Assembly (NCBI GenBank): GCA_963776795.1
Contig: CAVZNX010000017.1
Coordinates: 44,145 to 108,144 of the forward strand
DNA from: an uncultured Chloroflexia bacterium
GTDB lineage: Bacteria; Chloroflexota; Anaerolineae; Anaerolineales; UBA4823
Reading direction: 5' to 3'
DNA: 64,000 nucleotides
Made by a program: the position numbers and the translations under genes. Positions 7,455 to 58,664 of this stretch are shown piece by piece. Positions within the stretch are counted from its first letter, which is position 1, and each line of letters opens with the position of its first letter. The notes beneath the pieces were generated by a model. The model worked only from the letters and a program-made list of their open reading frames with translations, was not told the DNA's origin and did not search any database.

Positions 7455-7456
7455 AC

Positions 7457-17119: not shown

Positions 17120-17298
17120 ACCGTGTGACGTTTTGAGACGCTTTTGAGACGCTTTATCACTATACTTTGATTAATTGAACGGATGATAGAATTCCTCCAG
17201 ATGGTCATTAGAGATAAGCCTCTTAGTGAACCATCAGGTGATCTGCTGTTCGGTCAGCAGATCAAGTTGCAGGGAAGCTAATAATGAGGAGGCGTTTT
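17120..17298 (+). promoter_or_regulatory. conserved upstream/leader region of the duplicated stress module (copy 1)
   Basis: Alignable by eye with 22690-22861. Contains TATACT, CCTCC (17194-17198), hairpin 17240-17263 (gatctgctg/cagcagatc) and SD GGAGG 17288-17292. A tandem ttttgagacgc duplication occurs only in this copy. Confidence 0.4.
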
Positions 17299-31843: not shown

Positions 31844-32284
31844 ATGACGTACGGTCCAATAGATATTCTAGCCTTAGAATTTAAAACCGAGAAACTCAAA
31901 GGAGAGATCATACCGGAGCTGCTCGAGTTGGTCAAAAACAAGGTCGTGCGGATAATCGATCTCGTAATGATCCAGAAATATGAAGATGGACATTACGAGG
32001 CGGCCGAAATGCAGCAGTTGGCACATGACGTCCTTGCGCTCTTCGATCCGCTGGAGGTCGAAACGACAGGGATCATTCAAGTCGAAGATATCGCTAATGT
32101 AGCTGATACAATGGAGAACGGCACCAACGCGGCAATATTGATGTTTGAAAACCTGTGGGCAGTCAAGTTCAAAGATGCAGTGCTCAGGGCGGACGGCCGG
32201 TTGTTGGGACAGGACCGAATTCCACACGAGGTTGTGGAGGAAGCCTTGGAGACATTTGCTAAAGCTGAATCAGCCACGAAGTGA
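31844..32284 (+). CDS. DUF6325-like protein, copy A
   Basis: MTYGPIDILALEFK..K..GEI.PEL.ELV....VRIIDLV.I.K..DG... Family name from memory. SD GGAAGGAG. Confidence 0.6.
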   Translation: MTYGPIDILALEFKTEKLKGEIIPELLELVKNKVVRIIDLVMIQKYEDGHYEAAEMQQLAHDVLALFDPLEVETTGIIQVEDIANVADTMENGTNAAILMFENLWAVKFKDAVLRADGRLLGQDRIPHEVVEEALETFAKAESATK

Positions 32285-32338
32285 GCCGCTAAATCAGGCC
32301 AGATTTGAAACCTAAACCCAAAGAAACAGGAGGTTTAT

Positions 32339-32695
32339 ATGTTACGCAGAAGAGCAATGATGAGAAGACCAGTAGCTCGCTTGGGCGCCGCCGCCGTCGG
32401 TACGGCGGTCGTAGTGGGCACGGCCGGTGCCGTGCACCACCACCAGCAAAAGAAGTATGCGCAGCAAAATGCGCAAGCGCAGCAGCAGTATGACCAGGCG
32501 TATCAACAAGGTGTAGCGGATGCGGCTGCACAGCAGCAATCTACGCCACCGCCCCCGCAGTACGCAGCTCCGGTAGAGCAGGCTCCTGCGGATGATCTGA
32601 CCGCCAAACTCAAGGAGCTGGGCGATCTGCATGCCTCGGGTGTTCTGACCGATGAAGAGTTTGCTGCAGCCAAACAAAAACTGCTGGCAGGCTGA
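32339..32695 (+). CDS. SHOCT-domain protein with Arg-rich N-terminus, Gly-zipper segment and Q-rich linker, copy A
   Basis: C-terminal LKELGDLHASGVLTDEEFAAAKQKLLAG is the SHOCT motif. Confidence 0.75.
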   Translation: MLRRRAMMRRPVARLGAAAVGTAVVVGTAGAVHHHQQKKYAQQNAQAQQQYDQAYQQGVADAAAQQQSTPPPPQYAAPVEQAPADDLTAKLKELGDLHASGVLTDEEFAAAKQKLLAG

Positions 32696-32809
32696 TTGCT
32701 AACCCTGATAGGAGAAAGAGTACGGTTTCGGGTGAGCTAGCTCCACGCGGCTCACCCACCGTTTGATAATAGTTCGATGTCCTGAAACACAATGACGGAG
32801 TGTAATGTG

Positions 32810-33265
32810 ATGAATAAAAAAAATCAACTTGTCAAGTTACTTGCTACTCTCGGGATCGTTCTCTTTTTAGCTGCCTGCACGCAAGCCGCTACGCCAACCT
32901 CAGGTGATACAATCCAGGGCATTGTGTGGCAGTGGGAGAGTGTTACCAATAAAACAACGGGCGAGGTTACAACCGTTATGAACCCAGAGAATTACTCAAT
33001 CACCTTCAACACGGACGGCACACTGGTAGGCAAAGCGGATTGCAACAATTTCAACGGTACCTACTCGCAAGAGAACGGTTTTTCTATTAAAATTAATGCC
33101 TCCACAATGGCCTACTGTGGTGACACTTCTATGGATCAACAGTATCTGACACTACTGTCAAGCGTAGCTGCCGGCGGGCCTGATGGTAATGGAGGCCTGG
33201 CTTTGGAAACTGCAGGCGGTGAGCAACGCATGCTATTCAAAGATGGAGGACCTGCTAAGCAATGA
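32810..33265 (+). CDS. META-domain (HslJ-like) lipoprotein
   Basis: ATG 32810; lipobox FLAAC. WQWESV...Y.ITFNTDGTL.GKADCNNFNGTY......I....STMAYC pattern. Confidence 0.75.
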   Translation: MNKKNQLVKLLATLGIVLFLAACTQAATPTSGDTIQGIVWQWESVTNKTTGEVTTVMNPENYSITFNTDGTLVGKADCNNFNGTYSQENGFSIKINASTMAYCGDTSMDQQYLTLLSSVAAGGPDGNGGLALETAGGEQRMLFKDGGPAKQ

Positions 33266-34887: not shown

Positions 34888-36609
34888 ATGGTTACTCCTA
34901 CGTCCTCTTCCAACGGCATTAAACGCTTTATTCCGGGTCTAGCTTTGTTTCAGAAAGTGACACCCATACTACTTCGGACCGATTTTATTGTATCCATTAC
35001 AGTATTTGCGGTGCTCGTTCCCTCGTCAATGGCTTATGGAGATCTTGCTGGGGTTACACCGGTGGCAGGGTTGTATGTTGCACTTGGCGCCATGGTGATG
35101 TACGCACTATTTGGTACGTCCAAGCAGGTCATTATGGGATCTGAAGCGACGAGTGCCATCATGACCGCTGCAGCAGTTGCACCCCTGGCAGCTGGTGACC
35201 CGGCACGCTATGCCGCGCTGGCGGCAATGACCGCCATACTCGTCGGCATCATTTCGCTACTAGCGCGTGTTGCAAAGCTTGGATTCATTACCGATTTCCT
35301 ATCCAAGCCTATCCTCGTTGGTTATATATTTGGTGCCACGCTCATTGTGATCGGTAGCCAGTTGGGTAAGATGTTTGGGATTACGCTTGAGAGTGATAAA
35401 TTCTTTCAACAGGTCTTGGAGCTGATCAGCCGACTTGATGAAACACACCTGCTCACCTTCGTCATTGGTGTGATTTGTGTGGCGGCGCTGTTCATCATGC
35501 GTCGCATTAATCGCGCAATTCCTGGTCCGCTGGTTGTGGTTGTCTTTGCCATTATTGCTTCGGTTGTATTCGACCTGGAAGCCCAAGGTGTAAAGGTTGT
35601 AGGTGAGGTACCGGCTGGATTGCCCCATATAGCAATCCCGGCGGTCAGCGTGGCGGATATCTTTGCACTGCTGCCAGCGGCCCTGGCCCTGACAATCTTG
35701 ATCTATGCAGACGAAGTCCTGACCTCGCGCGTCTTTGCGGCGAAACACGGTCAAAAAGTTAACGCCAACCAAGAATTTGTCGCCATTGGCTTTGCCAATA
35801 TTGGAGCCGGGTTGTTAACCGGCTTCCCTGCTGCTCTAAGCGCATCCCGCACAGCGGTCTCAGACCAGATGGGCGGAAAAACACAGTGGGTTGGCATTTT
35901 CGCTGCAGCACTCACCATCATCTTTCTGCTCTTTTTCACACCCCTGCTGGCACCATTACCCACAGTCGCTTTAGGTGCAATCATCATCGTCGCTTCTCTC
36001 GGCTTAATCGACCTGGCTGCGTTTGGCTACTTACGGAAAGTACGCCGTTCAGAGTTCTGGCTGGCTGTGGTGACGGCTTTCGGTGTACTCACCATCGGGG
36101 TCCTGGCTGGTATTCTTTTTGCGGTGGTTCTGTCATTGATCAACGTTATTTATCATATTTCGCGACCCCACGATGCGCTGCTAGACGAAGTGGAAGCAGG
36201 CGGTGGTACGGTATATCGAGGTGTCACCGACGGAGAGACTCCGCTGACCGAGCCAGGTCTGATCGTTTACCGTTTCGATGCTCCGCTCGTATTTGCAAAT
36301 GCGGCATTCTTTACTGAACGTTTGGAAGAGCTCATTAACGACGCTGGTGATGGATTGAAATGCGTCATATTCGATGCGGAAGCGGTCACCGATTTCGATT
36401 CAACGGCTGCGGAAGCATTTGAAAATCTGGATAGAGATTTGGAACGGAGAAAGGTTGAATTATGGATCGCTCGGGCAAATACGCCTCTGCGTGAACTCTT
36501 TCAAGTGACGGGTTTAACAACCCGCATTGGTGAGGAGAATATCTACCCGTCCATCCGTGCTGCAGTGACGGCATATCATGAGCGTTTTAGTACAACAAAA
36601 TCAAATTAG
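34888..36609 (+). CDS. SulP-family anion transporter with C-terminal STAS domain (1 of 3)
   Basis: 573 aa, polytopic core plus a STAS-like tail (..VYRFDAPLVFANAAFF..). Confidence 0.85.
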   Translation: MVTPTSSSNGIKRFIPGLALFQKVTPILLRTDFIVSITVFAVLVPSSMAYGDLAGVTPVAGLYVALGAMVMYALFGTSKQVIMGSEATSAIMTAAAVAPLAAGDPARYAALAAMTAILVGIISLLARVAKLGFITDFLSKPILVGYIFGATLIVIGSQLGKMFGITLESDKFFQQVLELISRLDETHLLTFVIGVICVAALFIMRRINRAIPGPLVVVVFAIIASVVFDLEAQGVKVVGEVPAGLPHIAIPAVSVADIFALLPAALALTILIYADEVLTSRVFAAKHGQKVNANQEFVAIGFANIGAGLLTGFPAALSASRTAVSDQMGGKTQWVGIFAAALTIIFLLFFTPLLAPLPTVALGAIIIVASLGLIDLAAFGYLRKVRRSEFWLAVVTAFGVLTIGVLAGILFAVVLSLINVIYHISRPHDALLDEVEAGGGTVYRGVTDGETPLTEPGLIVYRFDAPLVFANAAFFTERLEELINDAGDGLKCVIFDAEAVTDFDSTAAEAFENLDRDLERRKVELWIARANTPLRELFQVTGLTTRIGEENIYPSIRAAVTAYHERFSTTKSN

Positions 36610-36841
36610 AGGAGAAAAATAGATATCATATTAATAAAGATGGAATCCCCATTTCCCAGAAGGACCACTCGCGCAAAATTGGACCTGCCCGGTGAGCTGA
36701 TCCGGGATAGTGAAGCGGATCTAAAGATCGCTGAGGCACTGCACTAAGTATAAACAGAGTTGCTGCTTCAAAGTGATCCGATCGTGAACCTAGCAACAAC
36801 CATCAATTTTTATGTGAAGCATCATCGGAAGGAGATGTTAA

Positions 36842-39205
36842 ATGGCACTAAAGATCTATAAAGAAGGAACCCCATTCACTGGCGTGATCGGACGGACCAC
36901 AGAGGAGTCCTCACCCGCCTGGCCGGAGGCACCCCGCCCCCCAGAGGGCGCACCCAACATCCTTTTCTGGGTGTTGGACGACGTTGGCTTTGGGCAGCTT
37001 TCCAGTTTCGGCGGGCTGGTTGAAACGCCGGTGTTGGACAGCCTGGCTGCCAACGGACTACGCTACACCAACATGCACACCACCGCCTTGTGCTCACCAT
37101 CGCGTGGCTGCATCCTGACCGGGCGCAATCACCACTCGATTGGGTTGGCATCGATCACTGAGACTTCCACTGGTTACCCTGGCTACAACGGCGTCCTGCC
37201 CTTTGACCGGGGTATGCTCAGTGAGATGCTGCTGCCAATGGGTTACAACACATTCTGTTTGGGGAAATGGCACCTGACCCCCCCTGAACACACTACAGCA
37301 GCCGGCCCCTATGACCGCTGGCCACTCGGGCGTGGTTTTGAGCGCTTCTACGGCTTCCTGGGCGGCGAAACCCACCAGTGGTACCCTGAATTAGTGTATG
37401 ACAACCATGAAGTCAAGCAGCCCAAACTCCCGGAAGAGGGCTACCACCTGAGCATCGACCTAGCCGACAAAGCCATCGAGTTCATCCAGGATGCGCAAGT
37501 CAACGCCCCGGATAAGCCGTTTTTCCTGTATTACGCAACAGGTGCCGGGCACGCACCGCACCATGTGCCTAAGGAGTGGGCCGATAAGTACAAGGGCAAA
37601 TTCGACATGGGCTGGGACAAGTACCGCGAGCTGGTCCACAAGCGCCAGCTCGAGATGGGCATCATCCCTGCAGGCACCGAGCTTTCGGCACATGACCCCG
37701 ACGTGCCAGTCTGGGATACGCTGCCGGCAGAAGTCAAGCGGCTGTATGCCCGGTTCATGGAGGTGTATGCTGGATTCATGAGCTTCACTGATTATCACTT
37801 TGGGCGCATCCTCGATTTCTTGAAAGAGATCGGCGAGCTGGATAATACCCTGATCATAGTCATCTCCGACAATGGTGCCAGCTCTGAAGGTGGTCCTGTG
37901 GGCTCGCTCAATGAGATGTTCTTTTTCAATAACGTCAAGGAACTATTGGAAGATAATCTAAAGATGATTGACGAGTTGGGCAGTGTCGAGACTCTCAACC
38001 ACTACCCCTGGGGTTGGACCAATGCCGGTAACACACCCTTCCGACGCTGGAAGCGTGAGACTTACCGGGGCGGCACTACGGACCCATGCATCGTATCATG
38101 GCCAAAGGGTATCCAGGCGCGTGGTGAGGTGCGGACGCAGTATGCGCACATCATCGATTTCGTCCCGACGGTTTTGGAAGCCCTGGGTGTCGAGGCGCCG
38201 GAGAGCATCCGCGGTGTGCATCAGGCACCGATCGATGGAGTAAGCTTCGCCCATACCTTCAACCAGGCAGAAGCACCCACAAATCACCATACCCAGTACT
38301 TCGAGATGTTCGGACATCGCTCACTCTACCACGACGGCTGGCGGGCAGTTTGCCCGTGGCCAGGCCCGAGCTTCACCGAGGCTGCCAAGAAAGGTCGCCA
38401 ATTTGGATCGCCTATTCCGAATGAGGTGCTGGTGGATATCGAAGCCAACGATTGGGAGCTGTACCACATCGATGAGGACTATTCCGAATGCCATAACCTG
38501 GCTGCTGAGCACCGTGCCAAAGTGATCGATATGGTCGGTCGCTGGTGGGCCGAGGCAGGCAAGTACCAGGTGCTGCCGATCGATGGCGACGTCCGCAGCC
38601 GCCTTGTTGTGGAGCGCCCGACGATCGCTAAACCGAGGAACAAGTATGTCCTTTATCCGGGTGGGTCGTCGATCCCATTTTCTGCTACCCCCAAGCTTTA
38701 CAACCGACCCTGGAGTATCACGGCAGACGTGGTGATCCCGAAGGGTGGGGCAGAGGGTGTGTTACTGGCCCAGGGTGGTCGTACTGGTGGTTATACCTTC
38801 TTTGTTAAAGATAACCGGCTCCATTTCTTGTACAACTTCCTCGGTCGCGACAAGTTCTGGGTGCATTCCAGCGAGACGGTTCCGGAGGGAGAGGTTGAGC
38901 TGCGCTACGAATTCGAGCCGACCGGCAAGCCCAATCCTGCTGAGGGTCTGGGAGTGCCTGCGCGCAGCCAGCTCTACATCAATCGCAAGCTGGTTGGCAG
39001 CATCGACATGCCTTACTCGATCCTATTCATATTTGGGACGCAGGGACTGTCCTGTGGCTATGATAGCGCCGATCCTGCCGCGCCAGGCGAGTACACTGAT
39101 GAGTTCCGCTTTACCGGTACGATCAAGCGCGTCACGATCGACCTTTCCGGCGAGCTGATCACGGACAGCGCAATGGATATGAAGATCGCCATGGCGCGTC
39201 AATAG
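36842..39205 (+). CDS. arylsulfatase (Cys-type, formylglycine-dependent)
   Basis: 787 aa. NILFWVLDDVGFG metal-site region and the sulfatase signature ALCSPSRGCILTGR. Confidence 0.85.
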   Translation: MALKIYKEGTPFTGVIGRTTEESSPAWPEAPRPPEGAPNILFWVLDDVGFGQLSSFGGLVETPVLDSLAANGLRYTNMHTTALCSPSRGCILTGRNHHSIGLASITETSTGYPGYNGVLPFDRGMLSEMLLPMGYNTFCLGKWHLTPPEHTTAAGPYDRWPLGRGFERFYGFLGGETHQWYPELVYDNHEVKQPKLPEEGYHLSIDLADKAIEFIQDAQVNAPDKPFFLYYATGAGHAPHHVPKEWADKYKGKFDMGWDKYRELVHKRQLEMGIIPAGTELSAHDPDVPVWDTLPAEVKRLYARFMEVYAGFMSFTDYHFGRILDFLKEIGELDNTLIIVISDNGASSEGGPVGSLNEMFFFNNVKELLEDNLKMIDELGSVETLNHYPWGWTNAGNTPFRRWKRETYRGGTTDPCIVSWPKGIQARGEVRTQYAHIIDFVPTVLEALGVEAPESIRGVHQAPIDGVSFAHTFNQAEAPTNHHTQYFEMFGHRSLYHDGWRAVCPWPGPSFTEAAKKGRQFGSPIPNEVLVDIEANDWELYHIDEDYSECHNLAAEHRAKVIDMVGRWWAEAGKYQVLPIDGDVRSRLVVERPTIAKPRNKYVLYPGGSSIPFSATPKLYNRPWSITADVVIPKGGAEGVLLAQGGRTGGYTFFVKDNRLHFLYNFLGRDKFWVHSSETVPEGEVELRYEFEPTGKPNPAEGLGVPARSQLYINRKLVGSIDMPYSILFIFGTQGLSCGYDSADPAAPGEYTDEFRFTGTIKRVTIDLSGELITDSAMDMKIAMARQ

Positions 39206-39231
39206 AATTTGAAGAGACAGTAGTCAATTAC

Positions 39232-39260
39232 CCCCGAAGGGTTCTAAGAACCCTTCGGGG
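39232..39260 (+). terminator. perfect 13-bp palindromic hairpin after the arylsulfatase gene
   Basis: ccccgaagggttc-taa-gaacccttcgggg, 27 nt after the stop. No U-tract follows, so terminator function is uncertain. Confidence 0.4.
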
Positions 39261-39281
39261 CATCACCAAAGGAGGTAGACC

Positions 39282-39707
39282 ATGTTTGATCTTCCACTGG
39301 AATATGCCTTGATAGGATTCAAGGATCCTAAGTTCTCAGGCAAGATCGTTCCCGAGCTGCTTGATCTGGCGCAGCGTGGCATCGTACGTATTGTGGACAT
39401 TGTTTTCATTCAAAAGGAGCAAGACGGTAATGTACGCACGCTCGAACTCAACGATCTCGATCCTGTAATGTATGAAATGTTCGTCCCATTGGGCGAGCAC
39501 GTTTCAAGCCTTTTCACGACCGATGACCTGCTGATCGCAGCGAACAAGCTCCCCAACAATTCAGCGGCGACGCTTTTCTTGTGGGAAAACCTGTGGGTAG
39601 CCAATCTCCGCCAGGCCATCCAGGATGCTGGTGGTGAATTGGTTGAGCGAGCGCAGATTGCTCCTGAAGTAGTGGAGCAATTCAAGAAAGAACTGGGCGC
39701 GGAATAG
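39282..39707 (+). CDS. DUF6325-like protein, third copy
   Basis: MFDLPLEYALIGFKDPKFSGKIVPELLDLAQRGIVRIVDIVFIQKEQDGN.. aligns with 31844 and 57846 products. SD AAAGGAGG. Confidence 0.6.
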   Translation: MFDLPLEYALIGFKDPKFSGKIVPELLDLAQRGIVRIVDIVFIQKEQDGNVRTLELNDLDPVMYEMFVPLGEHVSSLFTTDDLLIAANKLPNNSAATLFLWENLWVANLRQAIQDAGGELVERAQIAPEVVEQFKKELGAE

Positions 39708-39745
39708 CGCCATCAATATTTACCCTGTGAGAGGAGGTAGTTATT

Positions 39746-39982
39746 ATGAGCCCAAGAAGAGGACCTAATCCCCCCGGACCGGTAGGCGGAGTTGGCCGGG
39801 GTCCGAACCCGCCTGGCCCGGTGGGCGGGGTTGGCCGGGGACCAAACCCCCCCGGACCTGTAGGCGGAGTTGGCCGTGGACCAAATCCCCCTGGTCCCGT
39901 CGGCGGAGTTGGCCGTGGACCAAATCCACTAGGACCCGTTGGTGGGGTTGGCAGGCGTAACGGCCCTGGACTTTTACGGTAA
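39746..39982 (+). CDS. 78-aa Gly/Pro-rich repeat protein, MSPRR-(GPNPPGPVGGVGR)x5-RNGPGLLR
   Basis: ATG 39746 with GAGGAGG 8 nt upstream, 38 nt after the preceding gene. Units differ only at third codon positions. Confidence 0.6.
   Translation: MSPRRGPNPPGPVGGVGRGPNPPGPVGGVGRGPNPPGPVGGVGRGPNPPGPVGGVGRGPNPLGPVGGVGRRNGPGLLR
39761..39955 (+). repeat. five head-to-tail 39-nt units
   Basis: Units at 39761, 39800, 39839, 39878 and 39917. Units 1-4 encode identical peptides with up to 8/39 nucleotide differences. Confidence 0.95.
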
Positions 39983-40237
39983 TCAGAGTACCGCAACCTG
40001 CCGATGGTCGATACTGAGAGAAGTCGGATCGAATTAAGGATCGCAGGTTGACGCAGAAGGTCAGATAAGAATACATCTCTATGGGTGGCGGTATCCTCAA
40101 AGGAAACCGCCACCCCGTGAGAAAGCTGACGGTGAGATGTACTTGATTACACATACAGTAGGCAAAGGCGAGGTCACGAACACTGAGAAGACATGAGTAT
40201 ATAAGCCTGGATATTTAGGTAAGGATTATTAATAATA

Positions 40238-40900
40238 ATGGCAGATACACAACGAGTGAATCGTTATGAACGCCAATGGCCCGTCGCCATCACAATTCTG
40301 GTGGTGATCGGGTTATTGGCGCTGCTGCCCGGGCGGATTAAATTATTCGCAGACTGGGTCCCATATGCGATCGGGGTCCTGGTAATCACACCCATCATTG
40401 CGGTTGAGTTGACCAAAGACAATGCTCACTGGATCCGTTTTGAGCGTATCGTCACAATATTCTTCATGTTCTTCATCGTGCCTGGCATGCTAATAATCCT
40501 GGCGAGTTTGATCCAGAAAATGATCCAACAATCCACCGAAATCGGCGGTCTGCAGCTTTTCGCATCAAGTATTGCTGTCTGGACAACCAACATCCTGGCC
40601 TTCTCCATGTTGTATTGGCAGATCGATAGCGATGGACCTGAAGCCCGTATGAATGCTTCAGGAAAGCGCCCTGATTTTCTCTTTTCTCAACAAAGTGCGC
40701 CTGCAGAGGCTGTGCCACCCAATTGGCGACCGAATTTTGTCGACTACCTGTACCTGAGCTTTACGACCGCCACGGCGTTTAGTCCTACAGATGTCTTACC
40801 GATGACATCGCGTGGCAAATTGCTGATGATGCTCAACAGCTCAATATCGCTGTTAACACTGGTCGTGGTCGCGGCACGAGCGATAAATATCTTGGGCTAA
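40238..40900 (+). CDS. DUF1345-like polytopic membrane protein
   Basis: 220 aa. ..FVDYLYLSFTTATAFSPTDV.. resembles the DUF1345 signature (from memory). Confidence 0.5.
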   Translation: MADTQRVNRYERQWPVAITILVVIGLLALLPGRIKLFADWVPYAIGVLVITPIIAVELTKDNAHWIRFERIVTIFFMFFIVPGMLIILASLIQKMIQQSTEIGGLQLFASSIAVWTTNILAFSMLYWQIDSDGPEARMNASGKRPDFLFSQQSAPAEAVPPNWRPNFVDYLYLSFTTATAFSPTDVLPMTSRGKLLMMLNSSISLLTLVVVAARAINILG

Positions 40901-41110
40901 CGAGGGAGATTAATGAGGATGTCATTTACACGTTCATCATATAATTATGGAAGCCTAAGCATGCTTACCCCGAGAGCGAATTGTAGGATTGTCGAAAAAT
41001 TTGCTTCCTGTGAGGCATCATCGATCGGCACAGACATTTTTTTCTTGCATATAAGAACTGAGATCAATAATTTTAGTTAAAATCCATTGGGAAAACCAAG
41101 GAGCAAAACG

Positions 41111-41794
41111 ATGAACCAGCCTTCGACCGTAGTTCGACCTAGTTTGACTTCACCACGGGCAGCAGCAATTGCCGGGATATTATTTTCTGTGTTGCTCCTC
41201 ACAAGCTTGATCCTCGTGCGGGTTTCGGTACCGTCCGATCTGCAGGATGCAGGAACCTGGCTTTCCGGCAATTGGAAAACAGTTGGTTTTGCATTAAATC
41301 TGCTGCCATTCGCAGGGATCGCATTTTTGTGGTTCATCGGTGTGGTGCGTGATCGTCTTGGAAACAGTGAAGACCGCCTCTTTGCCACAGTATTCCTGGG
41401 CAGTGGGCTCCTGTACCTGGCTATGCTGTTCTCCTCTGCAGCGGTAGCTGGTGTAATTATAAATATCTATGGGACTACCCCAAATCTTCTGATCTCGTCG
41501 GGTATCTACACTTTTGGCCGTACATTGACTTACGAGATCATTACGGTTTATACAATGAAAATGGCTGGAGTATTCATGATCACCACCTGCACCCTATCAC
41601 TGCGTACTGGGATCATCCCGCGCTGGATGGCATATCTTGGACTCGTGCTGGCATTGCTCCTGTTGCTTACGGTCAGCTTGTTTTACTGGGCCCCATTGGT
41701 ATTCCCGCTCTGGGTTCTGTTGATCAGCGTGCATATCTTGCTGACAAACCTACGCAAGCCTAAAAACGAACCAATCCCGGTTTCCCAGGGTTAA
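41111..41794 (+). CDS. polytopic membrane protein, unknown function
   Basis: ATG 41111 with AAGGAG SD inside ORF 41087..41794. Confidence 0.6.
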   Translation: MNQPSTVVRPSLTSPRAAAIAGILFSVLLLTSLILVRVSVPSDLQDAGTWLSGNWKTVGFALNLLPFAGIAFLWFIGVVRDRLGNSEDRLFATVFLGSGLLYLAMLFSSAAVAGVIINIYGTTPNLLISSGIYTFGRTLTYEIITVYTMKMAGVFMITTCTLSLRTGIIPRWMAYLGLVLALLLLLTVSLFYWAPLVFPLWVLLISVHILLTNLRKPKNEPIPVSQG

Positions 41795-41899
41795 AATGTC
41801 TGATATGGGCATCAGGGAGACAATTCTGCCAGGACATCCCCATTTTTCATGGCGAATTCTCAATGAGATAATGAAGAGAAATTAATCAGGAGGATTTTT

Positions 41900-42729
41900 A
41901 TGGAACAAGCAGCGGCTGCCCCTCGCCCAAAAAGCAATTCTTACACCATTTTTATCTTTGTCCTGACCATCATCTCCCTGGCCGTGATGGTGGTGATGTT
42001 GATACCAGGACTCGATGATGAAACCGTTCAAGGTGCTCGCATTCTACGACAATATTATCTGTGTTATTTTCCTGATCGACTTTTTCAACAACCTGAGGAA
42101 CTCTCCCAAGAAATCCGACTATTTTATCAAGGACCGCGGCTGGTTAGATCTGCTGGGCTCGATTCCTTCGCTAGGGCTTTTTACCAACGCGGGCAAATAT
42201 GCCGGCCTCTTCCGCCTGGCGCGGCTGAGTCGCCTGGCACGCATTGCACGACTGATGAAAGGTGGGGGAAAGGAAGCGTTAATCAAGGATGTGCTGGCGA
42301 ACCGAAGCCGCTACACTGGATTTATCACAATCCTAATGACCCTCATCGTCCTGACAACTTGCAGCGTGCTCGTATTGCAATTTGAAAGCAAGTCCCTGAT
42401 GCCAATATCACAAACTGGTTGGGATGCACTTTGGTATGCCGTTGTGACCATCACCACAGTGGGTTACGGTGACTTTTATCCCAAGACAGTGCTAGGTAGA
42501 ATTGCGGGAATGTTCATCATGTTTGCGGGCGTCGGCATCATCGGTGTATTGGCCAGCATTTTATCCAGCTTATTGGTTGGCGCGCCATCTACCCCTGCAG
42601 AGGAAGAAGCACCCGCAGCTAGTACCAGCAGTTGTGGCAAATGATGAGCTGGCTGAAATTAAAAATGAGCTGGCTGAGATGCGCCAGCTGTTAGAAAAAA
42701 TTGCTGTAGAAAAAGATCTGAAGGAGTAA
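41900..42729 (+). CDS. voltage-gated-type (6TM) K+ channel, interrupted by two apparent 1-nt insertions (about 42005-42040 and 42565-42640)
   Basis: S1 ([21 protein letters not shown]) is in ORF 41900... S2-S6 are in ORF 42015..42644 with S4 [18 protein letters not shown] and the selectivity filter TTVGYGD. The coiled-coil tail [21 protein letters not shown] is in ORF 42502..42729. Confidence 0.8.
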
Positions 42730-42774
42730 ACTGGAACTCGATTACCTTGCTTACCAGAGCTAATGGAGGAAAGC

Positions 42775-44061
42775 ATGATTGACCCACACGCAAAACTAAT
42801 ATCCTATCTTCGATTGATGTTATTGGTAGCTATTCTTGGGGCGGTCAGTGCAGTGATCACCTTTGTATTTATTGCCCTTGTGAACGTCATTACTGACCTG
42901 GTATGGAAACAAGCTCCAACCGCACTTGGGATAGACACCCGATTGTTCACCTTTGTGGTCTGTGCACTTGGTGGTTTGCTGGTGGGCTGGCTGGTGAAGA
43001 TCTTCGGAGATCATAATGCCATCTTTGCTGAGCTGATGCAAGAATTCGGGAAAACTGGGCGCTTTGACTACCGCCATGCACCCGGGATCGTGATCACTGC
43101 CTTTGTCTCTCTTATCTCGGGTGGCAGCCTCGGGCCTGAAGCACCACTGGCGGATGCCTGCGGTGGGATGGGGACATTGGCTGCGGAAAAGCTCAAGCTC
43201 GACGAGCAGCAGACGCGCACATTGGGTTATGGTGGTTTAAGTGCCATGCTGGGTGCTTTTGTCACCAATCCGTTTGGCGGGGCATTATTAAGTTTAGAGT
43301 CAGCCCAAGGTGGAGCGACGGGTGCTATGCTCTATTTTTGGACGCTCTTTCCCGCCCTGCTTGCATCGGCAGTGGCTACGATGGTCTTTGTTGGATTAAC
43401 AGGGAGCTTTATGGGTGTGTTATTCTCTTTTCCTGATTATGTGCCGGTGGTTAAAGATCTGATCATAGCTATCCCATACAGCCTGGTGGGAGGCCTGGCG
43501 GGTGTGCTGTTTATGCTCATGTTTAAATGGCTGCGGAAGCTGATGCAGCCCATGAAGAGCCATGTGGTGTGGCGCGGGTTGATCGGTGGTTTGGGTATGG
43601 GGATCATCGGCGTGTTGTTACCGCTGACCCTGTTTTCAGGGGAAGAACAAACTGGCGAGATGATCGAACAAGCGGCTGAGATCGGTGTGATTATGCTGAT
43701 CGTACTGGCGATTGCAAAAATATTTTCCACCTCCCTCCTGCTGGCAACCGGATGGAAAGGTGGCTATATCTTCCCGATCATGTTCGCCGGGGTCGCGCTG
43801 GGAATGGCAGGCCACCTGCTATTTCCTGCAACTCCAGTTGCAGTGACTGTGGCGGCCACATTGGCAGGTGCCCTGGTGGCCTCCTTGAAAGCGCCATTGT
43901 TTGCAGCGCTCTTCACCCTGGCACTGGTGCAGGCAGAAACAGCACCGGTGGTTGCAGTCGCCGTGATCATTAGCGCGTTAATGGTCGCAATTCTAGGAAT
44001 GCGCGAAGCCCGGGCACAAGCCCAGGCACAGGCTGAAGTAAAGACAGCCGATATTTCATAA
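42775..44061 (+). CDS. ClC-family chloride channel/transporter
   Basis: ORF from 42763; the ATG at 42775 has the GGAGGAAAGC SD. GGSLGPEAP and GGYIFP ClC motifs. Confidence 0.85.
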   Translation: MIDPHAKLISYLRLMLLVAILGAVSAVITFVFIALVNVITDLVWKQAPTALGIDTRLFTFVVCALGGLLVGWLVKIFGDHNAIFAELMQEFGKTGRFDYRHAPGIVITAFVSLISGGSLGPEAPLADACGGMGTLAAEKLKLDEQQTRTLGYGGLSAMLGAFVTNPFGGALLSLESAQGGATGAMLYFWTLFPALLASAVATMVFVGLTGSFMGVLFSFPDYVPVVKDLIIAIPYSLVGGLAGVLFMLMFKWLRKLMQPMKSHVVWRGLIGGLGMGIIGVLLPLTLFSGEEQTGEMIEQAAEIGVIMLIVLAIAKIFSTSLLLATGWKGGYIFPIMFAGVALGMAGHLLFPATPVAVTVAATLAGALVASLKAPLFAALFTLALVQAETAPVVAVAVIISALMVAILGMREARAQAQAQAEVKTADIS

Positions 44062-44076
44062 TCAGGATAAGGTGAT

Positions 44077-45831
44077 ATGGCAACCCAATCAATCGGAGAC
44101 CCAAAAGCTGCAAGTAAATTAAGCCGGTTCATACCCATCCTGGCATGGCTGCCGCGTTACAACCGGACATGGCTGGTGGCTGACATCATTGCTGGCCTGA
44201 CGCTATGGGGCTTGGTTGTTCCAGAAGGCATGGCCTATGCGGGGGTGGCTGGCTTGCCTGCGCAAGCAGGCTTATATACGCTGGTCGCTTCCCTGTTCAT
44301 CTATGCCTTGTTCGGTTCCTCGCGCCATCTATCCGTTGGAGCGACCTCTGCCACAGCGGCTTTGATCGCCTCCACCGTGATTGCCCTAGGCGCAACCACA
44401 GCGGATATGACAACCTACTATGCCTATGCTGTGGCCCTTGTCCTGGTCGTGGGTTTGGTTTTCCTGGTGGCAGGTGTAGCGCGCCTGGGCTGGGTGACCC
44501 AGTTCCTGTCCAAACCGGTCATGGATGGATTCGTCACCGGCTTAGCGATCTTCGTGGCAGTGGGGCAGCTTAACAAATTATTTGGGGTTGAAAAAGGCGA
44601 AGGGAATGTCTTTGAGAAGTTTTTCTATATCATCAAGCAGCTCCCCGAAGCCAATTGGATGACATTTGCAGTGGGGGCTATAGCCCTGGCACTATTGTTT
44701 GTGCTGCCACGCTGGAATAAGAAGATCCCAGCCGGTTTGGTGGTGCTATTCGCTTCTATTGCAGTAAGCTCTATCTTCAAGCTGAATGCGAATTATGGAG
44801 TAGCAGTGGCAGGAGTGCTACCCCAGGGCTTGCCAAGCCTGGCATTTCCGAAGGTGCCACTGAATACCATGTTGGAAATGATCCTGCCCGCGATTGGAAT
44901 TTTCCTTGTAGCCTACAGCGAGGCCCTGGGCGTGGCGCGCGAGTTCGGTGAAAAACACCATTATGATGTCGACCCGAACCAGGAGCTGAATGCCCACGCA
45001 ATTACCAATATAGCCAGTGGCATGTTCGGCGGCATGATCGCGGCTGGGAGCATGTCTTGCTCTGCTGTTAAGGAAGGGGCAGGCGGGCGGTCACAAATCA
45101 CCAATCTTGTCGCCTGGGTAGTGACCCTGGTGACACTACTTTTCCTGACCCCCTTATTTACCAACCTGCCCGAGGCGGTACTGGCGGCATTGATCATCCA
45201 CGCCATCTGGCACATCATCGCGGCACGAAAATTGGCAAAGATCCAATTGGTTTCACGGACGGAGTTCTGGTTAGGGCTGCTCACCCTAGCGGGCGTGCTT
45301 TTTATCGATGTCTTGCAAGGCATGATCATTGGCCTGGTAGCTTCTATATTATTGGTCATCTACCAATCAAGCCGGCCACACGTGGCTTCTCTTGGCCGAG
45401 TACCGGGAATTCCAGGTGCTTACTCAGACCTAAACCGTCACCCTGAGAACCTCAGGATCCCGGGTATCTTAATAGTGCGTCTGGATGCACCGATATACTA
45501 CGCAAACGCCTTGACAGTACGGGAGTCGGTTAAGAATATGGTTGCTGAAACCCAGCCTGCACCTTACGCGGTGGTGATGGATGCTGCCGGGCAGGACTCT
45601 CTGGATATCACCAGTGCAGAAGCGTTGAAAGGACTTTTTGGTGAGCTGAGAGAAAAGGGAATTGAGTATTATATTGCTGAGGTGCACGCACCGGTACTAG
45701 AATCCGGTAAGCGGTTGGGCATGGTTGAGTTGATCGGTGAAGATCACATATTCCCAACGGTTGAGACCGCGATACGTTTCATTGAAAAGAAGGATAAGCC
45801 TGTCCAAGAAAGACCGGCTGAGTCAATTTGA
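44077..45831 (+). CDS. SulP-family anion transporter with STAS domain (2 of 3)
   Basis: 584 aa; same architecture as 34888..36609. Confidence 0.85.
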   Translation: MATQSIGDPKAASKLSRFIPILAWLPRYNRTWLVADIIAGLTLWGLVVPEGMAYAGVAGLPAQAGLYTLVASLFIYALFGSSRHLSVGATSATAALIASTVIALGATTADMTTYYAYAVALVLVVGLVFLVAGVARLGWVTQFLSKPVMDGFVTGLAIFVAVGQLNKLFGVEKGEGNVFEKFFYIIKQLPEANWMTFAVGAIALALLFVLPRWNKKIPAGLVVLFASIAVSSIFKLNANYGVAVAGVLPQGLPSLAFPKVPLNTMLEMILPAIGIFLVAYSEALGVAREFGEKHHYDVDPNQELNAHAITNIASGMFGGMIAAGSMSCSAVKEGAGGRSQITNLVAWVVTLVTLLFLTPLFTNLPEAVLAALIIHAIWHIIAARKLAKIQLVSRTEFWLGLLTLAGVLFIDVLQGMIIGLVASILLVIYQSSRPHVASLGRVPGIPGAYSDLNRHPENLRIPGILIVRLDAPIYYANALTVRESVKNMVAETQPAPYAVVMDAAGQDSLDITSAEALKGLFGELREKGIEYYIAEVHAPVLESGKRLGMVELIGEDHIFPTVETAIRFIEKKDKPVQERPAESI

Positions 45832-45862
45832 TCCAATCATACCGGCACATGGAGAAAACTGA

Positions 45863-46972
45863 ATGGAAAATATAAAAGGACGGGGTGTCGTTTATTTGGT
45901 AGCATTTGCCAGTATCTTTATTGTTTTGTTCGGTATCCGCGCCTCGGCTTCAATCCTAAATCCGATCCTGCTTGCTGCGGTGATCACCGTCACCGTTCTA
46001 CCAATCCCTGGCCGTCTAAAAAAGCGCGGCTTACCGGGTTGGCTCTCCCTGGTGCTGAGCATCCTGCTGGTCGTTGCGATCTTGTTACTGGTCATCGGTA
46101 CGATCTTCTTTTCAGTCGCCAAGCTATCCACTGAGCTTCCGGCATTACTGGCGGACGGTTCGGAGCAGGCTGCTGAAGACCTTTCCTCGACTGGAACTAC
46201 GACAATACAGATAGAGCAGGTGACCACATCGATTGGCCCGATCGCGCAGGGCGCGTTGACGGCGGTGATGAATATTTTAGTGACATTCGGATTAGCTCTG
46301 GTGATATTCTTCTTTATGATCAGTGCTGCTTTGGCCTTGCCTACCCCATCCCGTATGGGCCTGGATCCGGGTTCGTCGATCATCAGCCGCATCTCTGAGC
46401 TCACCGAAGATGTACGCAAGTATATGACCGTCCTGACCGGGATAAATTTCCTGGTGGGATTGGGGGATACGATATTTCTTCTCATCATGGGAGTACCATA
46501 CGCGTTATTATGGGGATTGCTGGCGTGGTTCATGGGTTATATCCCATCGATCGGGTTCTTGATCGCCTTAATACCACCCGTCCTGATGGCTTATGCGTTG
46601 TATGGTTTTCAGACTGCCTTGATCGTCGCGATCGGATATATCTTGATCAATGGTGGAATACAAAACTTTATTCAACCAAAGATCATGGGGGACAAGCTTA
46701 ATGTCTCACCATTGATCGTTTTTATTGGATTGTTCATTTGGGGCTACCTGCTGGGGGGGATCGGCGCCATCCTGGCCGTCCCCATGACCATGCTGGTGAT
46801 CATCATCATGGAAAATTTCCCAGCTACGCGCCCGGTCGCGATCTTGATGCGCTACACGGGTGAGGACAAAAAAGAAGAGAGGGAAGAGGCGGCAGAACAT
46901 GTAAAAAGCCTGTGGGGAAAGGCAAAAGAAACGTTACACGCCGACCGTGAGTCGAAGGATATACCAAAGTGA
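45863..46972 (+). CDS. AI-2E family transporter (third in window)
   Basis: 369 aa. ..INGGIQNFIQPKIMGDKLNVSPL.. segment. Confidence 0.85.
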   Translation: MENIKGRGVVYLVAFASIFIVLFGIRASASILNPILLAAVITVTVLPIPGRLKKRGLPGWLSLVLSILLVVAILLLVIGTIFFSVAKLSTELPALLADGSEQAAEDLSSTGTTTIQIEQVTTSIGPIAQGALTAVMNILVTFGLALVIFFFMISAALALPTPSRMGLDPGSSIISRISELTEDVRKYMTVLTGINFLVGLGDTIFLLIMGVPYALLWGLLAWFMGYIPSIGFLIALIPPVLMAYALYGFQTALIVAIGYILINGGIQNFIQPKIMGDKLNVSPLIVFIGLFIWGYLLGGIGAILAVPMTMLVIIIMENFPATRPVAILMRYTGEDKKEEREEAAEHVKSLWGKAKETLHADRESKDIPK

Positions 46973-47211
46973 CCCACTCAATACGTTCAGCCTGGCTCTG
47001 CATTTGGAAAAAAGCAGAAGGGTTGGGCTTTTATCCATACACAATAGCACCGGTTTTGCTGTTGTATACTGACAACCAGGTAGCGCCTGTGATCTTTACA
47101 AGGTAAGCGTTGGTTGTCTGAGTTAAATTCATATTTCAATATTTGGGAGCACAGAGCTGGACATAATATTAAAGGTTTCAAACTGAGCATTGGCTGCCCA
47201 AGGAGAGTGAT

Positions 47212-48561
47212 ATGAAAACACGGAAGATGAGAAGAGTGGCTGCCCGATACCGATGGGATCGGATGAAGGTGAGTTTTTGGTTTGCTCCAGTGGTCATGTC
47301 GATCGGAGCTGTTCTGCTTGCATGGTTAATGTATGAAATTGATAGTTTAATCCCTAATGATCAATTAGCGAACAGCCACTTCATCCTTTCCGGTATGCCA
47401 GGTGAGTTGCGTACTGTACTGATAGGCATGGCAACCACCATCCTGGCAACCGCCGGTGTGGTATTTACATTGCTCACACTGCCCCTTTCAACGGTCGCTG
47501 CCCAATACGGCTCACGCTTATTAAGGGTTTTCCTGGGCGATCGCACCACTCAGCTCGTCTTGGGAACGTTTGTGGCAACATTTGTTTATTGCCTGGCAGC
47601 AGCCCTATCCATTCTTCCAACGATGGTAGAGCCATACGCTCCTCAGCTTACTGTAACGGTCGGTCTGTTCTTGACGCTGGCATCATTTGGCTCGCTGATC
47701 TTGTTGGTTCAACACATCAGCACAATGCTCCAAGCGCCGAATATTGCCGCGGCTGCGGGTAGTGAATTGCGGGATGTTGTCCTGGCAGAGGTACCCGTAC
47801 AGGTCATCCCCGGTGATAATTGCATGGAAGGGTCAAAGCTTACCGATGAAACGCTGGTCGAAACGGCAGGCTATCCCATCTGTGTAAGGCAGTCAGGCTC
47901 CATCCAATATATTGATCCAGAATACATCATCGAACTTGCGAGGGAACATAACCTGGTCATCCGGCTGCTACGTAAACCTGGCGATATCGTGTGGCGTGAT
48001 GATCGGGTCGCTTTAGTGTGGCCGGCTAAGCATGTCGATGAGGACCTGGAGCATCAAATCCGGAATGCATTCCGGATCGGGAACGGTCGCACACCTACCC
48101 AGGATGTCGTTTATGCCTTCAACCAGCTTGTCGAAATGGCAGTGCGTGCCATGTCCCCAGCAATCAACGACCCATTTACAGCGATGACCTGCCTGAATTA
48201 TATCGGTGAGGGGCTGGCGCTATTTATTAAACAGGGTGAGAAAAGCCCATGTTTATATGACCAGGATCATCAGCTGCGCCTGATCCTACAACCGGTCACC
48301 TTCACAGAACTGCTCGACAATGCATTCACGATGATCCGCCATGCCAGCTGCGACAATGCGACCGTCTTGCTGCATATGTTGGAGGTGATCCAAACAATTG
48401 GTCTGGATGTGAATTCAACAGGACCGAAACTTGAATTACTTCGTCACTTAGACCTGATCCGAGAAGAGACAACAGCTGGATCGATTGTAGGCTCGGATCG
48501 GGAGCAAATTTATCAGCGATGCACGGATTTGGCCAGCTCACTTAAAGCCAATATATCCTGA
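47212..48561 (+). CDS. DUF2254-like membrane protein
   Basis: 449 aa with four N-terminal TM segments and a large soluble C-terminal domain. Family name from memory. Confidence 0.55.
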   Translation: MKTRKMRRVAARYRWDRMKVSFWFAPVVMSIGAVLLAWLMYEIDSLIPNDQLANSHFILSGMPGELRTVLIGMATTILATAGVVFTLLTLPLSTVAAQYGSRLLRVFLGDRTTQLVLGTFVATFVYCLAAALSILPTMVEPYAPQLTVTVGLFLTLASFGSLILLVQHISTMLQAPNIAAAAGSELRDVVLAEVPVQVIPGDNCMEGSKLTDETLVETAGYPICVRQSGSIQYIDPEYIIELAREHNLVIRLLRKPGDIVWRDDRVALVWPAKHVDEDLEHQIRNAFRIGNGRTPTQDVVYAFNQLVEMAVRAMSPAINDPFTAMTCLNYIGEGLALFIKQGEKSPCLYDQDHQLRLILQPVTFTELLDNAFTMIRHASCDNATVLLHMLEVIQTIGLDVNSTGPKLELLRHLDLIREETTAGSIVGSDREQIYQRCTDLASSLKANIS

Positions 48562-48634
48562 AGGAATATTTTAATACTTATACCGGCTGACAATGTGATC
48601 GTTCATAAAATACCTCTATCCTATCAGGGATAGT

Positions 48635-50356: not shown

Positions 50357-51216
50357 TGGATAGACGACCTTCGCTGATCGAGTTTGGTAAAGAAGTATAT
50401 AAAATCTGGGTGACTGAAAAGCCCAATCAACTGGCAGCGGCATTGGCGTATTTTGGGATGTTCTCATTTGCTGCAGTGATCTATATCGCCTTTCGGTTAG
50501 CCGGCATTTTTATTGATGAAGCTGCTGCTGCGGAACGTTTTTATACCCGCATTGCGACCGTCCTGGGTACGGAGACCGCAACCTTCATCCAGAATTCGGT
50601 CGTGGCATTGTCATCAACTAATACAGGCAGCTCTCCCCTTGTGACCATCGTGAGTCTGGTATCGCTTCTGCTTGCTGCAATGGGGTTGTTCCTGCAGCTT
50701 AAATATGTCTTGAACAGGATTTGGCAGGTTCCGCTCATTCAGAGCGGACAGAGGTTCGCCCTCATCCGGCGTTATTTCTTCGCATTTATCGTTGTCATCG
50801 CTTTGGGCTTATTGATCATCCTGGGGACAGTCTTAAGTGCGGTCCTGGCCTGGTTCGGCTCTGTCGCTAGCCAGTATATAAGCGGGAGCTACTGGTTATT
50901 GGTTTTGGAAATACTGGCCTTAATTGGTGTGAATGTCTTAGCCAATGCTTTCATGTACAAAGTGCTACCGGATGTGAAACTATCGTGGCGAGATGTCTGG
51001 TTAGGATCTGTCATCGCTACGCTCCTGTTTGTTATTGGAGGGGTGGTAATCGGGTTATATTTTAAGATCGCCGGGGTCGGCTCAGCTTTTGAAGCAGCTG
51101 GGGCGTTTGCCGTTGTGTTGATCGCGATCTACTATTTCGCACAAATATTCTTAATGGGTGCTTTGATCACCCGGGTCTATGCTCGCAGGTACGGCTCGCT
51201 GCGCGAGTCGATGTAA
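50356..51216 (+). CDS. YihY/BrkB-family membrane protein
   Basis: ATG 50356 overlaps the SulP stop (TGATG). LAAALAYFGMFSFAAVIYI.. pattern, 6 TM. Confidence 0.8.
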   Translation: MDRRPSLIEFGKEVYKIWVTEKPNQLAAALAYFGMFSFAAVIYIAFRLAGIFIDEAAAAERFYTRIATVLGTETATFIQNSVVALSSTNTGSSPLVTIVSLVSLLLAAMGLFLQLKYVLNRIWQVPLIQSGQRFALIRRYFFAFIVVIALGLLIILGTVLSAVLAWFGSVASQYISGSYWLLVLEILALIGVNVLANAFMYKVLPDVKLSWRDVWLGSVIATLLFVIGGVVIGLYFKIAGVGSAFEAAGAFAVVLIAIYYFAQIFLMGALITRVYARRYGSLRESM

Positions 51217-57845: not shown

Positions 57846-58274
57846 ATGACATACGGTCCAATTGACTTTCTAGCCTTGGAATTCAAAGGCAACAAGTTTT
57901 CAGGTGAGATCCTCCCAGCTCTGCGAGAGCTGGTGGATAACAAGATCGTGCGGGTGATCGATTTAGTGATCATTAGGGTTGAGAATGGCAAATATCAAAC
58001 ACTCGAGCTGCAGCAGATGGATTCGGCCACGATCGCCATCTTCGACCCACTCCAGATCGAAGTCAATGGCATGATCCAGGTCGAAGATATCGAGATGATC
58101 AGCCAGGAGCTGGAAGACAACACCACGGCAGCCTTGCTGATGGTCGAAAACCTGTGGGCGATCAAGTTCGGCGAAGCTGTGCTCAGGGCGAATGGCCGGA
58201 TGGTGATGCATGAACGTATCCCCATGGAGACGGTCAATGAAGTCATGGAGATATTTGCCAAGGCTGAAGGATAA
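57846..58274 (+). CDS. DUF6325-like protein, copy B
   Basis: ATG 57846 with AAAAGGAG SD inside ORF 57771..58274. MTYGPIDFLALEFKGNKFSGEILPALRELV... Confidence 0.6.
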   Translation: MTYGPIDFLALEFKGNKFSGEILPALRELVDNKIVRVIDLVIIRVENGKYQTLELQQMDSATIAIFDPLQIEVNGMIQVEDIEMISQELEDNTTAALLMVENLWAIKFGEAVLRANGRMVMHERIPMETVNEVMEIFAKAEG

Positions 58275-58320
58275 CCAGTTTTTTTTATTTTTAGATAGAA
58301 ATATTGACCAGGAGGTCAAA

Positions 58321-58664
58321 ATGATGCGAAGACGTATGGTAGGAAGAAGTGTAGCACGAGTTGCGGTGGGTACGGCGGTCGTAGCGGGTACAGCCGGAGC
58401 GGTCCACCACCACCAGCAACAGAAATATGCCCAGCAAGATGCCGCGGCGCAACAACAGTATGACCAGGCTTATCAGCAGGGTGCAGCCGATGCGGCTGCA
58501 CAGCAGCCAGTTGCACCACCATCCCGCAGTATGCAGCTCCAGTAGCGCAGGCTCCTGCGGATGACTTGACTGCCAAATTACAGCAGCTGGCTGAGCTGCA
58601 CACAGCGGGTGTGCTGACCGATGAAGAGTTCACGGCTGCCAAGCAAAAATTGCTGGCAGGATGA
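58321..58664 (+). CDS. SHOCT-domain protein, copy B, interrupted by an apparent 1-nt deletion near 58515-58526
   Basis: ATG 58321 (SD GGAGG). ORF stops at 58545 (..PVAPPSRSMQLQ*), but the -1 frame reads ..PQYAAPVAQAPADDLTAKLQQLAELHTAGVLTDEEFTAAKQKLLAG* ending at 58664, collinear with copy A. Copy A has ccccc where B has tccc. Confidence 0.75.

Follow-up and report, generated by a model that had tools for sequence, protein, structure and literature searches.

The repeat gene and its DUF6325 neighbor

The DNA analyzed here is a 64,000-nucleotide (nt) stretch of an uncultured Chloroflexia bacterium (the window; contig CAVZNX010000017.1, positions 44,145 to 108,144, of assembly GCA_963776795.1). 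At 39746-39982 it holds a small open reading frame (ORF) built almost entirely of tandem 39-nt units, which lies downstream of, and in the same orientation as, a gene for a protein of the DUF6325 type (Table 1). The ORF belongs to a family of small genes that accompany one subtype of DUF6325, and its product may well be a binding partner of the DUF6325 protein encoded beside it.

Table 1. Features of the locus and of the paralogous modules, in window coordinates
Feature	Position	Strand	Basis
Small ORF, 78 codons plus stop; basic, predicted disordered, Gly/Pro-rich tandem-repeat microprotein	39746..39982	+	
Shine-Dalgarno sequence GAGGAGG, 8 nt before ATG 39746	39731..39737	+	Direct sequence reading
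Basic N-terminus MSPRR (family pattern M-x-x-R-R/I)	39746..39760	+	Family sequences
Five 39-nt units; units 1 to 4 encode GPNPPGPVGGVGR, unit 5 encodes GPNPLGPVGGVGR	39761..39955	+	Tandem Repeats Finder, codon-position analysis
C-terminal tail R-RNGPGLLR plus TAA (family pattern RRNG-x-GL-L/M-R-stop)	39953..39982	+	Columns invariant in alignment A1
DUF6325-type partner gene, 141 aa, acidic, pI 4.45	39282..39707	+	PF19850 homologues, adjacency
Antisense ORF, 143 aa, GTG start, judged no gene	39682..40113	-	52-locus comparison
GC-rich hairpin, 10-bp stem GGGTGGCGGT / ACCGCCACCC	40083..40115	+	Intergenic fold z-score -3.8
Paralogous module: DUF6325 (31844-32284) and SHOCT protein (32339-32695)	31844..32695	+	
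Second paralogous module: DUF6325 (57846-58274) and SHOCT-type partner (58321-58664), frameshift-split	57846..58664	+	

The original prediction, made from the sequence of the window alone, described five head-to-tail units within the ORF, a Shine-Dalgarno sequence 8 nt 5' of the ATG, and a 38-nt gap after the upstream gene. All of these were confirmed: translation and Tandem Repeats Finder (period 39, 4.9 copies, 39761-39952) both recovered the array, and the ATG at 39746 begins 38 nt past the stop of gene 39282-39707. In the 78-amino-acid (aa) product, MSPRR runs straight into five units, which are followed by RNGPGLLR and the stop; the 13-residue module reads G-P-N-P-P-G-P-V-G-G-V-G-R. As had also been noted, units 1 to 4 differ at third codon positions only: all 10 of their 10 variable columns fall there, an outcome with a probability of ~(1/3)^10 = 1.7e-5 if the three codon positions had an equal chance of change. 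Their divergence, put at up to 8 of 39 bases, proved to be slightly greater, with pairs differing at 4 to 9 bases and the maximum of 9 reached in pairs 2/3 and 2/4. Unit 5 departs from this pattern at two sites: a second-position change turns CCN into CTA (Pro to Leu), and a first-position change, CGG to AGG, is synonymous.

The encoded protein is composed of 35% Gly, 27% Pro, 13% Val, and 12% Arg; it has an isoelectric point (pI) of 12, a charge of +8.5, no acidic residue, and four PPG motifs. Its AlphaFold2 (AF2) model contains no secondary structure and reaches a predicted local distance difference test score (pLDDT) of 53.6, and the protein is accordingly predicted to be intrinsically disordered. 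A polyproline-II helical bundle was considered and set aside as unsupported, the model being of low confidence and unstructured. No signal peptide was found (highest 15-residue Kyte-Doolittle average, 0.08), and the protein has no hydrophobic stretch, in keeping with the earlier statement that neither a signal peptide nor a transmembrane segment is visible.

The product of the upstream gene has a charge of -11.4. Its match to PF19850 is weak (20.2 bits; cut-off, 23.4), whereas the two other DUF6325 paralogues of the window pass the cut-off at 36.8 and 38.3 bits. It nevertheless aligns with these paralogues at E = 4e-25 and 3e-23, and many homologues 79 to 89% identical to it carry a precomputed PF19850 match; in all, it has 1440 homologue clusters. 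The AF2 model of this protein shows an alpha/beta fold (pLDDT 77; predicted template modeling score, 0.73). A Foldseek search of the model against the PDB returned no match at E <= 0.001 (best E = 0.013, TM 0.41), and the weak matches were to ferredoxin-like or ACT-like folds.

A constrained family of small coding genes

To place the ORF among its relatives, two sets of loci were collected. For the first, the back-translated unit pattern was scanned over one genome per species, which yielded 71 stretches; four of the matches were non-members (three of them secreted proteins of Obscuribacterales, the fourth a chance match in Gordonia). Because this set had been found through the peptide itself, a second was gathered through the neighboring DUF6325 gene, and 59 distinct repeat genes from it, with 435 within-gene unit pairs, were compared. 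Most scan loci came from Chloroflexota metagenome-assembled genomes (MAGs) labeled Anaerolineae, Anaerolineales, Caldilineaceae, Ardenticatenaceae, or "Chloroflexia," with a minority from MAGs labeled Actinomycetota and a few with other labels. Several genomes contained two or three repeat-ORF loci.

A protein search with the repeat protein returned about 20 small proteins of one architecture: M-x-x-R-R/I, several G(P)NPPGPVGG(V/I)G-x units, and RRNG-x-GLLR followed by the stop. Across the family the number of units ranges from 1 to 6, the unit length is 12 or 13 residues, and the protein is 25 to 92 aa long; the C-terminal tail is kept in nearly all complete members. At the opposite end of the gene, the 15 nt of 39746-39760 are identical in loci L083, L084, L024, and L081. 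Where the assembly is free of homopolymer frameshifts, every unit measures either 36 or 39 nt and keeps the phase, and the frame-breaking unit lengths that had been named beforehand as a sign of a non-coding repeat did not occur among orthologues. Four members are unusual variants (L112, L121, L135, and L031), two with degenerate central GVGGVGGPGG expansions and two being single-unit genes of 25 to 27 aa. Frameshifts in C homopolymers were seen in proteins P0003, P0004, P0005, P0015, and P0022 and some MFD MAG loci, and in both the repeat ORF and its neighbors in L001-L004, L011, and the MFD MAG loci L028, L037, L048, and L080. Because the breaks fall in C homopolymers, we infer that they are long-read assembly errors and not signs of decay or pseudogenes.

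The original prediction did not recognize the protein, and Pfam, NCBIfam, PDB sequence, and literature motif searches likewise gave no match to it. In Pfam, the 78-aa protein had no match at E <= 0.01 and two further family members had none at E <= 0.1. When 1.84 billion representative proteins were searched with a profile, 38 matched at E <= 0.001, and about 16 of these look like members of the family; the exact protein of the window was absent from the collection, and the members present are labeled only "hypothetical protein." The small-protein family, largely missing from annotation, and the gene pair to which it belongs are thus undescribed.

Which strand is read had to be settled across loci, since the substitutions alone leave this open, as had been cautioned from the start. 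The third positions in question are also those of the antisense ORF at 39682-40113, which reads PTPPTGPGGFGPR, with one Phe-to-Leu and one Gly-to-Ser change. It stays open across the repeats, and in a comparison of the window with the orthologous locus L083 it is as synonymous (31 synonymous and 2 non-synonymous differences) as the plus frame (29 and 2). We therefore assigned the plus strand from translation signals and conserved ends, not from substitution patterns. An ATG with a GGAG(G) Shine-Dalgarno sequence 6 to 8 nt upstream is present in 53 of the 56 loci with a usable start region, and the three loci that lack it are frameshifted assemblies. In antisense, by contrast, 48 of 52 loci are without an ATG and 4 offer no start codon at all; the open stretch before the repeats has a median of 13 codons, because the C-TAG stop of the plus strand is palindromic, and neither the flanks nor the end points of this frame are conserved. 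Furthermore, Val-to-Ile changes on the plus strand would read as Thr-to-Ile or Thr-to-Met in antisense. Nor does the array behave as a non-coding DNA repeat, which would not hold 93% of its differences in one codon phase: the units stand head to tail in a single codon phase, and Rfam gave no match at gathering score anywhere in the window. An antisense gene and a non-coding repeat are both extremely improbable and, on this comparative evidence, effectively excluded. As far as sequence comparison can establish it, these data show that ORF 39746-39982 is a genuine plus-strand protein-coding gene, on the strand favored originally.

The neighbor-ascertained set made it possible to quantify the constraint on the encoded peptide. 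Among the 435 within-gene unit pairs, differences numbered 2025 at codon position 3, 77 at position 1, and 68 at position 2, corresponding to 1947 synonymous versus 134 non-synonymous codon differences; the peptide-ascertained set agreed with this. Divergence of the small ORF at first and second positions was mostly no greater than that of the well-conserved DUF6325 gene. Together with the comparison with L083, these substitution patterns show strong purifying selection on the repeat ORF, in line with the earlier proposal that the peptide repeat itself is selected.

The third positions in turn provide a view of unit turnover. Within genes, units mismatch at ~47% of third positions, versus ~57% for independent draws (a hand estimate from codon frequencies), which indicates that most units are old and have not been homogenized. 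Some genes contain near-identical units (e.g., units 3 to 5 of L024), so unit turnover continues. Selection for extra DNA divergence between units is unsupported, given that the observed mismatch is below the expected one. Third-position divergence from L083 was 39% for the repeat ORF and 9.9% for DUF6325; across 30 close locus pairs, however, the median ratio of the two was only 1.6, a value that could follow from the four-fold degeneracy of Gly, Pro, Val, and Arg codons. The idea that synonymous change is faster in the repeat ORF was rejected on this ground, and the excess divergence between the window and L083 is better explained by unit shuffling or conversion. In a separate observation on codon usage, the second codon of the unit (Pro, before AAY; e.g., 39764-39766) is CCG in 68% of 13-residue units, compared to 19 to 28% in the other three Pro columns, a bias that might reflect codon context or the avoidance of long C runs. 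The family offers a case of coding-repeat evolution in which the unit peptide is fixed, synonymous sites are near saturation, and unit number changes between relatives. It is also abundant, strongly constrained, and overlooked, and illustrates that a small ORF of low complexity may prove to be a genuine gene.

Pairing with DUF6325 and the surrounding genes

The association with DUF6325 was examined from both genes and was found, in all, in about 130 uncultured-bacterium loci, with the single exception of locus L058. Starting from the repeat ORF, a co-oriented DUF6325 gene ends 20 to 150 nt upstream in every other family locus with enough upstream DNA. Starting from DUF6325 alone, the repeat ORF lay directly downstream in 76 of 80 metagenome loci, and in the remaining 4 the contig ends within 155 nt. 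The paired DUF6325 proteins are 62 to 91% identical to that of the window, compared to ~33% for the two other DUF6325 paralogues of the window. The link between the ORF and DUF6325 put forward originally is therefore borne out in both directions, and the pairing of the repeat ORF with this DUF6325 subtype appears, across the loci collected, close to obligate both ways. A literature search for DUF6325 returned no papers; the pairing gives a first functional handle on this domain, in the form of a seemingly obligate partner that is open to synthesis for binding and structural work.

In a gene census extending ~3.5 kb to each side, DUF6325 was the sole constant neighbor. The gene before DUF6325 encodes a sulfatase in 15 of 43 loci and is otherwise variable. 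The first downstream gene, surveyed in 47 loci, fell into many unrelated clusters, the largest with 8 members; these clusters include a membrane protein like that at 41087-41794 of the window, ClC, K+ channel, AI-2E, DUF308, and rhodanese proteins, and a DUF6325 relative. In 11 of the 47 loci the first downstream ORF is on the opposite strand, clearly real genes included; the next gene is convergent in L054, for example, as is the histidine kinase gene that follows the ORF in L065. Hairpins of -18 kcal/mol or stronger were found downstream in 62% of 93 loci versus 20% of controls (Wilcoxon p = 3e-10), and we infer that the hairpin of the window probably ends the transcription unit. Taken together, the fixed DUF6325 gene, the variable outer genes, and the usual hairpin indicate that the conserved unit is a two-gene pair, which usually ends the transcript.

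These neighborhoods bear directly on the strongest of the rival explanations, that the ORF is a regulatory leader or arrest peptide in which stalling at PPG and the downstream hairpin control read-through into the following transporter or channel genes. PPG motifs stall ribosomes in the absence of EF-P, and four such motifs are present in the window protein; most loci have a strong hairpin after the ORF, and the gene that comes next is frequently one for a membrane protein or channel, in the same orientation. However, the downstream gene is not conserved, with the largest cluster accounting for only 8 of 47 loci and several genes being convergent, whereas the fixed partner lies upstream. The hairpin varies in position from 0 to 120 nt after the stop, and although its enrichment is what a leader would predict, an ordinary operon end gives the same result. 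Moreover, every unit residue and the tail are conserved, not PPG alone, and single-unit versions exist. We consider a leader function unlikely.

The genes around the pair form another point of interest. In the window, ion and anion transport genes follow one another in the same orientation over a long distance, 34888-51216 (three SulP, sulfatase, DUF1345-like, K+ channel, ClC, AI-2E, DUF2254, and BrkB/YihY), and parts of this series recur in related loci together with rhodanese genes. The sulfatase, SulP, ClC, K+ channel, and rhodanese genes nearby give a hint of the process involved, which may be one of ion, sulfur, or envelope stress physiology.

The two other DUF6325 paralogues of the window are each followed by a different kind of partner. 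The protein encoded at 32339-32695 contains a SHOCT domain (PF09851, E = 4e-10) and has an Arg cluster at its N-terminus, followed by a Gly/Ala/Val-rich stretch. The original prediction placed a SHOCT protein after both paralogues; this is correct for both, with the qualification that the second copy is split by a frameshift in the window. In that gene (58321-58664), the N-terminal part meets a stop at 58545, and the SHOCT C-terminus is read in another frame up to 58664; either the gene is a pseudogene broken by a frameshift or the assembly is in error here. A Pfam search did not find the SHOCT domain in the 78-aa protein. Locus L072 has the order SHOCT, DUF6325, repeat ORF, META domain. That the repeat ORF fills the slot held by SHOCT proteins beside other DUF6325 paralogues, as originally suggested, is supported by the window paralogues and by the order in L072. 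Module shuffling is also seen when 31844-33265 of the window, with the order DUF6325, SHOCT, META domain, is set beside L072 and L058. In three further loci (L028, L045, and L055), the small ORF is directly followed by a gene for a 209-aa DUF6325 relative (hhalign probability, 98%) with a Gly/Ala-rich insertion between its two halves. A loose rule, to which we attach low weight, may be that DUF6325 domains function alongside a Gly-rich segment, whether this is built into their own chain or comes from another protein.

Elsewhere in the window, two 30/60-nt tandem arrays (17987-18127 and 23550-23717) lie within two paralogous gene pairs (17284-18452 and 22862-24015) and look like a further type of coding repeat. 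On the minus strand, 234-7622 is taken up by a very large ORF of 2462 aa.

A candidate multivalent partner and its place among known systems

The reading that we favor, and consider rather probable, is that the ORF encodes a translated microprotein that forms an obligate pair with one DUF6325 subtype and serves as its multivalent, disordered binding partner. In such a pair, the disordered basic chain would bind the folded acidic DUF6325 protein, with the modules each serving as a short linear motif rich in proline and the basic ends, one on either side, as anchors. A single chain might in this way contact several subunits or sites of DUF6325 and so function as a multivalent clamp, tether, or regulator, taking the role that the Arg-rich, Gly-rich SHOCT protein would have beside the other DUF6325 paralogues. 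Consistent with this model are the predicted disorder of one protein against the predicted fold of the other, their opposite charges (+8.5 versus -11.4), the retention of both ends while the number of units varies from 1 to 6, the slot shared with the SHOCT partner, and the DUF6325 relative that carries a Gly/Ala-rich segment in its own chain.

Several points weigh against it. The exceptional locus L058, a contig of 1192 nt, has a META-domain gene instead of DUF6325 directly upstream of the repeat ORF. A fused DUF6325-repeat protein was not seen among the matches listed for either protein. The DUF6325 fold has no significant match in the PDB and therefore points to no function or process. Binding to DUF6325 is suggested by gene linkage, charge, and analogy, and the strict conservation of every unit residue exceeds the need of a spacer or an electrostatic binder.

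The original prediction had weighed a disordered partner against a multi-copy peptide precursor, and the former fits better. As a RiPP-like (ribosomally synthesized and post-translationally modified peptide) or signaling precursor, the chain would be cut after each Arg into 13-mers, possibly modified, with DUF6325 as a recognition or processing factor. The identical tandem units that each end in Arg, their variable copy number, and the conservation of both chain ends in the manner of leader and follower sequences would suit such a role. However, no peptide-modifying enzyme (none was visible in the earlier reading either), protease, or exporter is conserved within ~3.5 kb, and the protein shows neither a signal nor a leader peptide. 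In addition, the unit contains no Cys, Ser, Thr, Asp, Glu, Lys, Tyr, or Trp, the usual modification sites, and the DUF6325 model does not resemble a known enzyme or RiPP recognition element among its top PDB matches. A precursor is improbable on these grounds.

We regard it as equally improbable that the protein is a nucleic-acid-binding or toxic basic peptide neutralized by the acidic DUF6325 protein, either as a toxin-antidote or immunity-like pair or as a proline-rich antimicrobial-like peptide. Its pI, its GRG motifs, and its acidic partner would agree with this, as would the tight two-gene linkage and the presence of more than one copy in several genomes; but there is no export signal, no association with mobile-element or defense genes was seen in the neighborhoods surveyed, and both genes are so strongly conserved across many MAGs that the constraint looks more like that on housekeeping genes than like an arms race. 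The leader, precursor, and toxin explanations are thus disfavored by the neighborhood data and by composition.

Going further than the favored binding-partner reading, DUF6325 and the repeat microprotein might constitute an unrecognized two-component module, widespread in Chloroflexota. In it, a chain of genetically tunable length (1 to 6 units), built of proline-rich motifs under strict conservation, would act as scaffold, molecular ruler, or condensate seed in cross-linking or assembling DUF6325 oligomers and thereby control ion, sulfate, or envelope stress functions, and NPPGPxGGxG would represent a new general recognition or structural repeat. This larger proposal is possible but doubtful.

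The same tandem core, N-P-P-G-P-x-G-G-x-G, recurs in secreted proteins. Where the sequence was read, most of the profile matches other than the ~16 family-like ones were longer signal-peptide proteins that reuse this core (P0158, P0163, P0167-P0176, and P0186; in the scan, L020, L027, and L051). In contrast to the small ORF product, proteins such as P0158, P0163, P0171, and P0186 are 100 to 500 aa long and have signal peptides, spacers such as TNWE and SPDR, and in some cases OmpA-like C-terminal domains; no DUF6325 neighbor was present in the three loci examined (L020, L027, and L051). Five of the secreted proteins were checked against Pfam, all without a match, which points to a broader class of repeats not yet described.

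Among described repeats, collagen-like (Gly-X-Y)n was rejected, since the unit GPNPPGPVGGVGR has Gly at positions 1, 6, 9, 10, and 12, and so was the RTX nonapeptide repeat (GGxGxDxUx), given the period of 12 or 13, the lack of acidic residues, and the absence of a Pfam match. Elastin- and resilin-like polypeptides (VPGXG) are likewise rich in Gly, Pro, and Val with P-x-G motifs, and the repeat protein shares their disorder by prediction; it differs in its period of 12 or 13 instead of 5, in having one Arg per unit, 1 to 6 units, and specific conserved ends, and in being bacterial and apparently cytoplasmic, and no homology to them was detected. With EF-P-dependent PPG stalling leaders, the family has in common a short ORF with repeated PPG motifs, followed by a hairpin, but its constant neighbor is upstream, its downstream genes vary or converge, and the whole 13-residue unit is under selection. 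The likeness to elastin-like polypeptides and to EF-P/PPG stalling is one of resemblance, not membership.

The nearest catalogued analogue is the pair of DUF6325 and SHOCT genes (PF19850 followed by PF09851), itself uncharacterized. The repeat protein departs from it in having no SHOCT domain or hydrophobic segment and in being built of Pro/Gly repeats, and its DUF6325 partner is a distinct subtype, ~33% identical to the SHOCT-linked paralogues. The two pairs nevertheless share the upstream family, the orientation, the short spacing, a partner in which an Arg cluster precedes a Gly-rich stretch, and interchangeable flanking genes, such as a META-domain gene after the pair.

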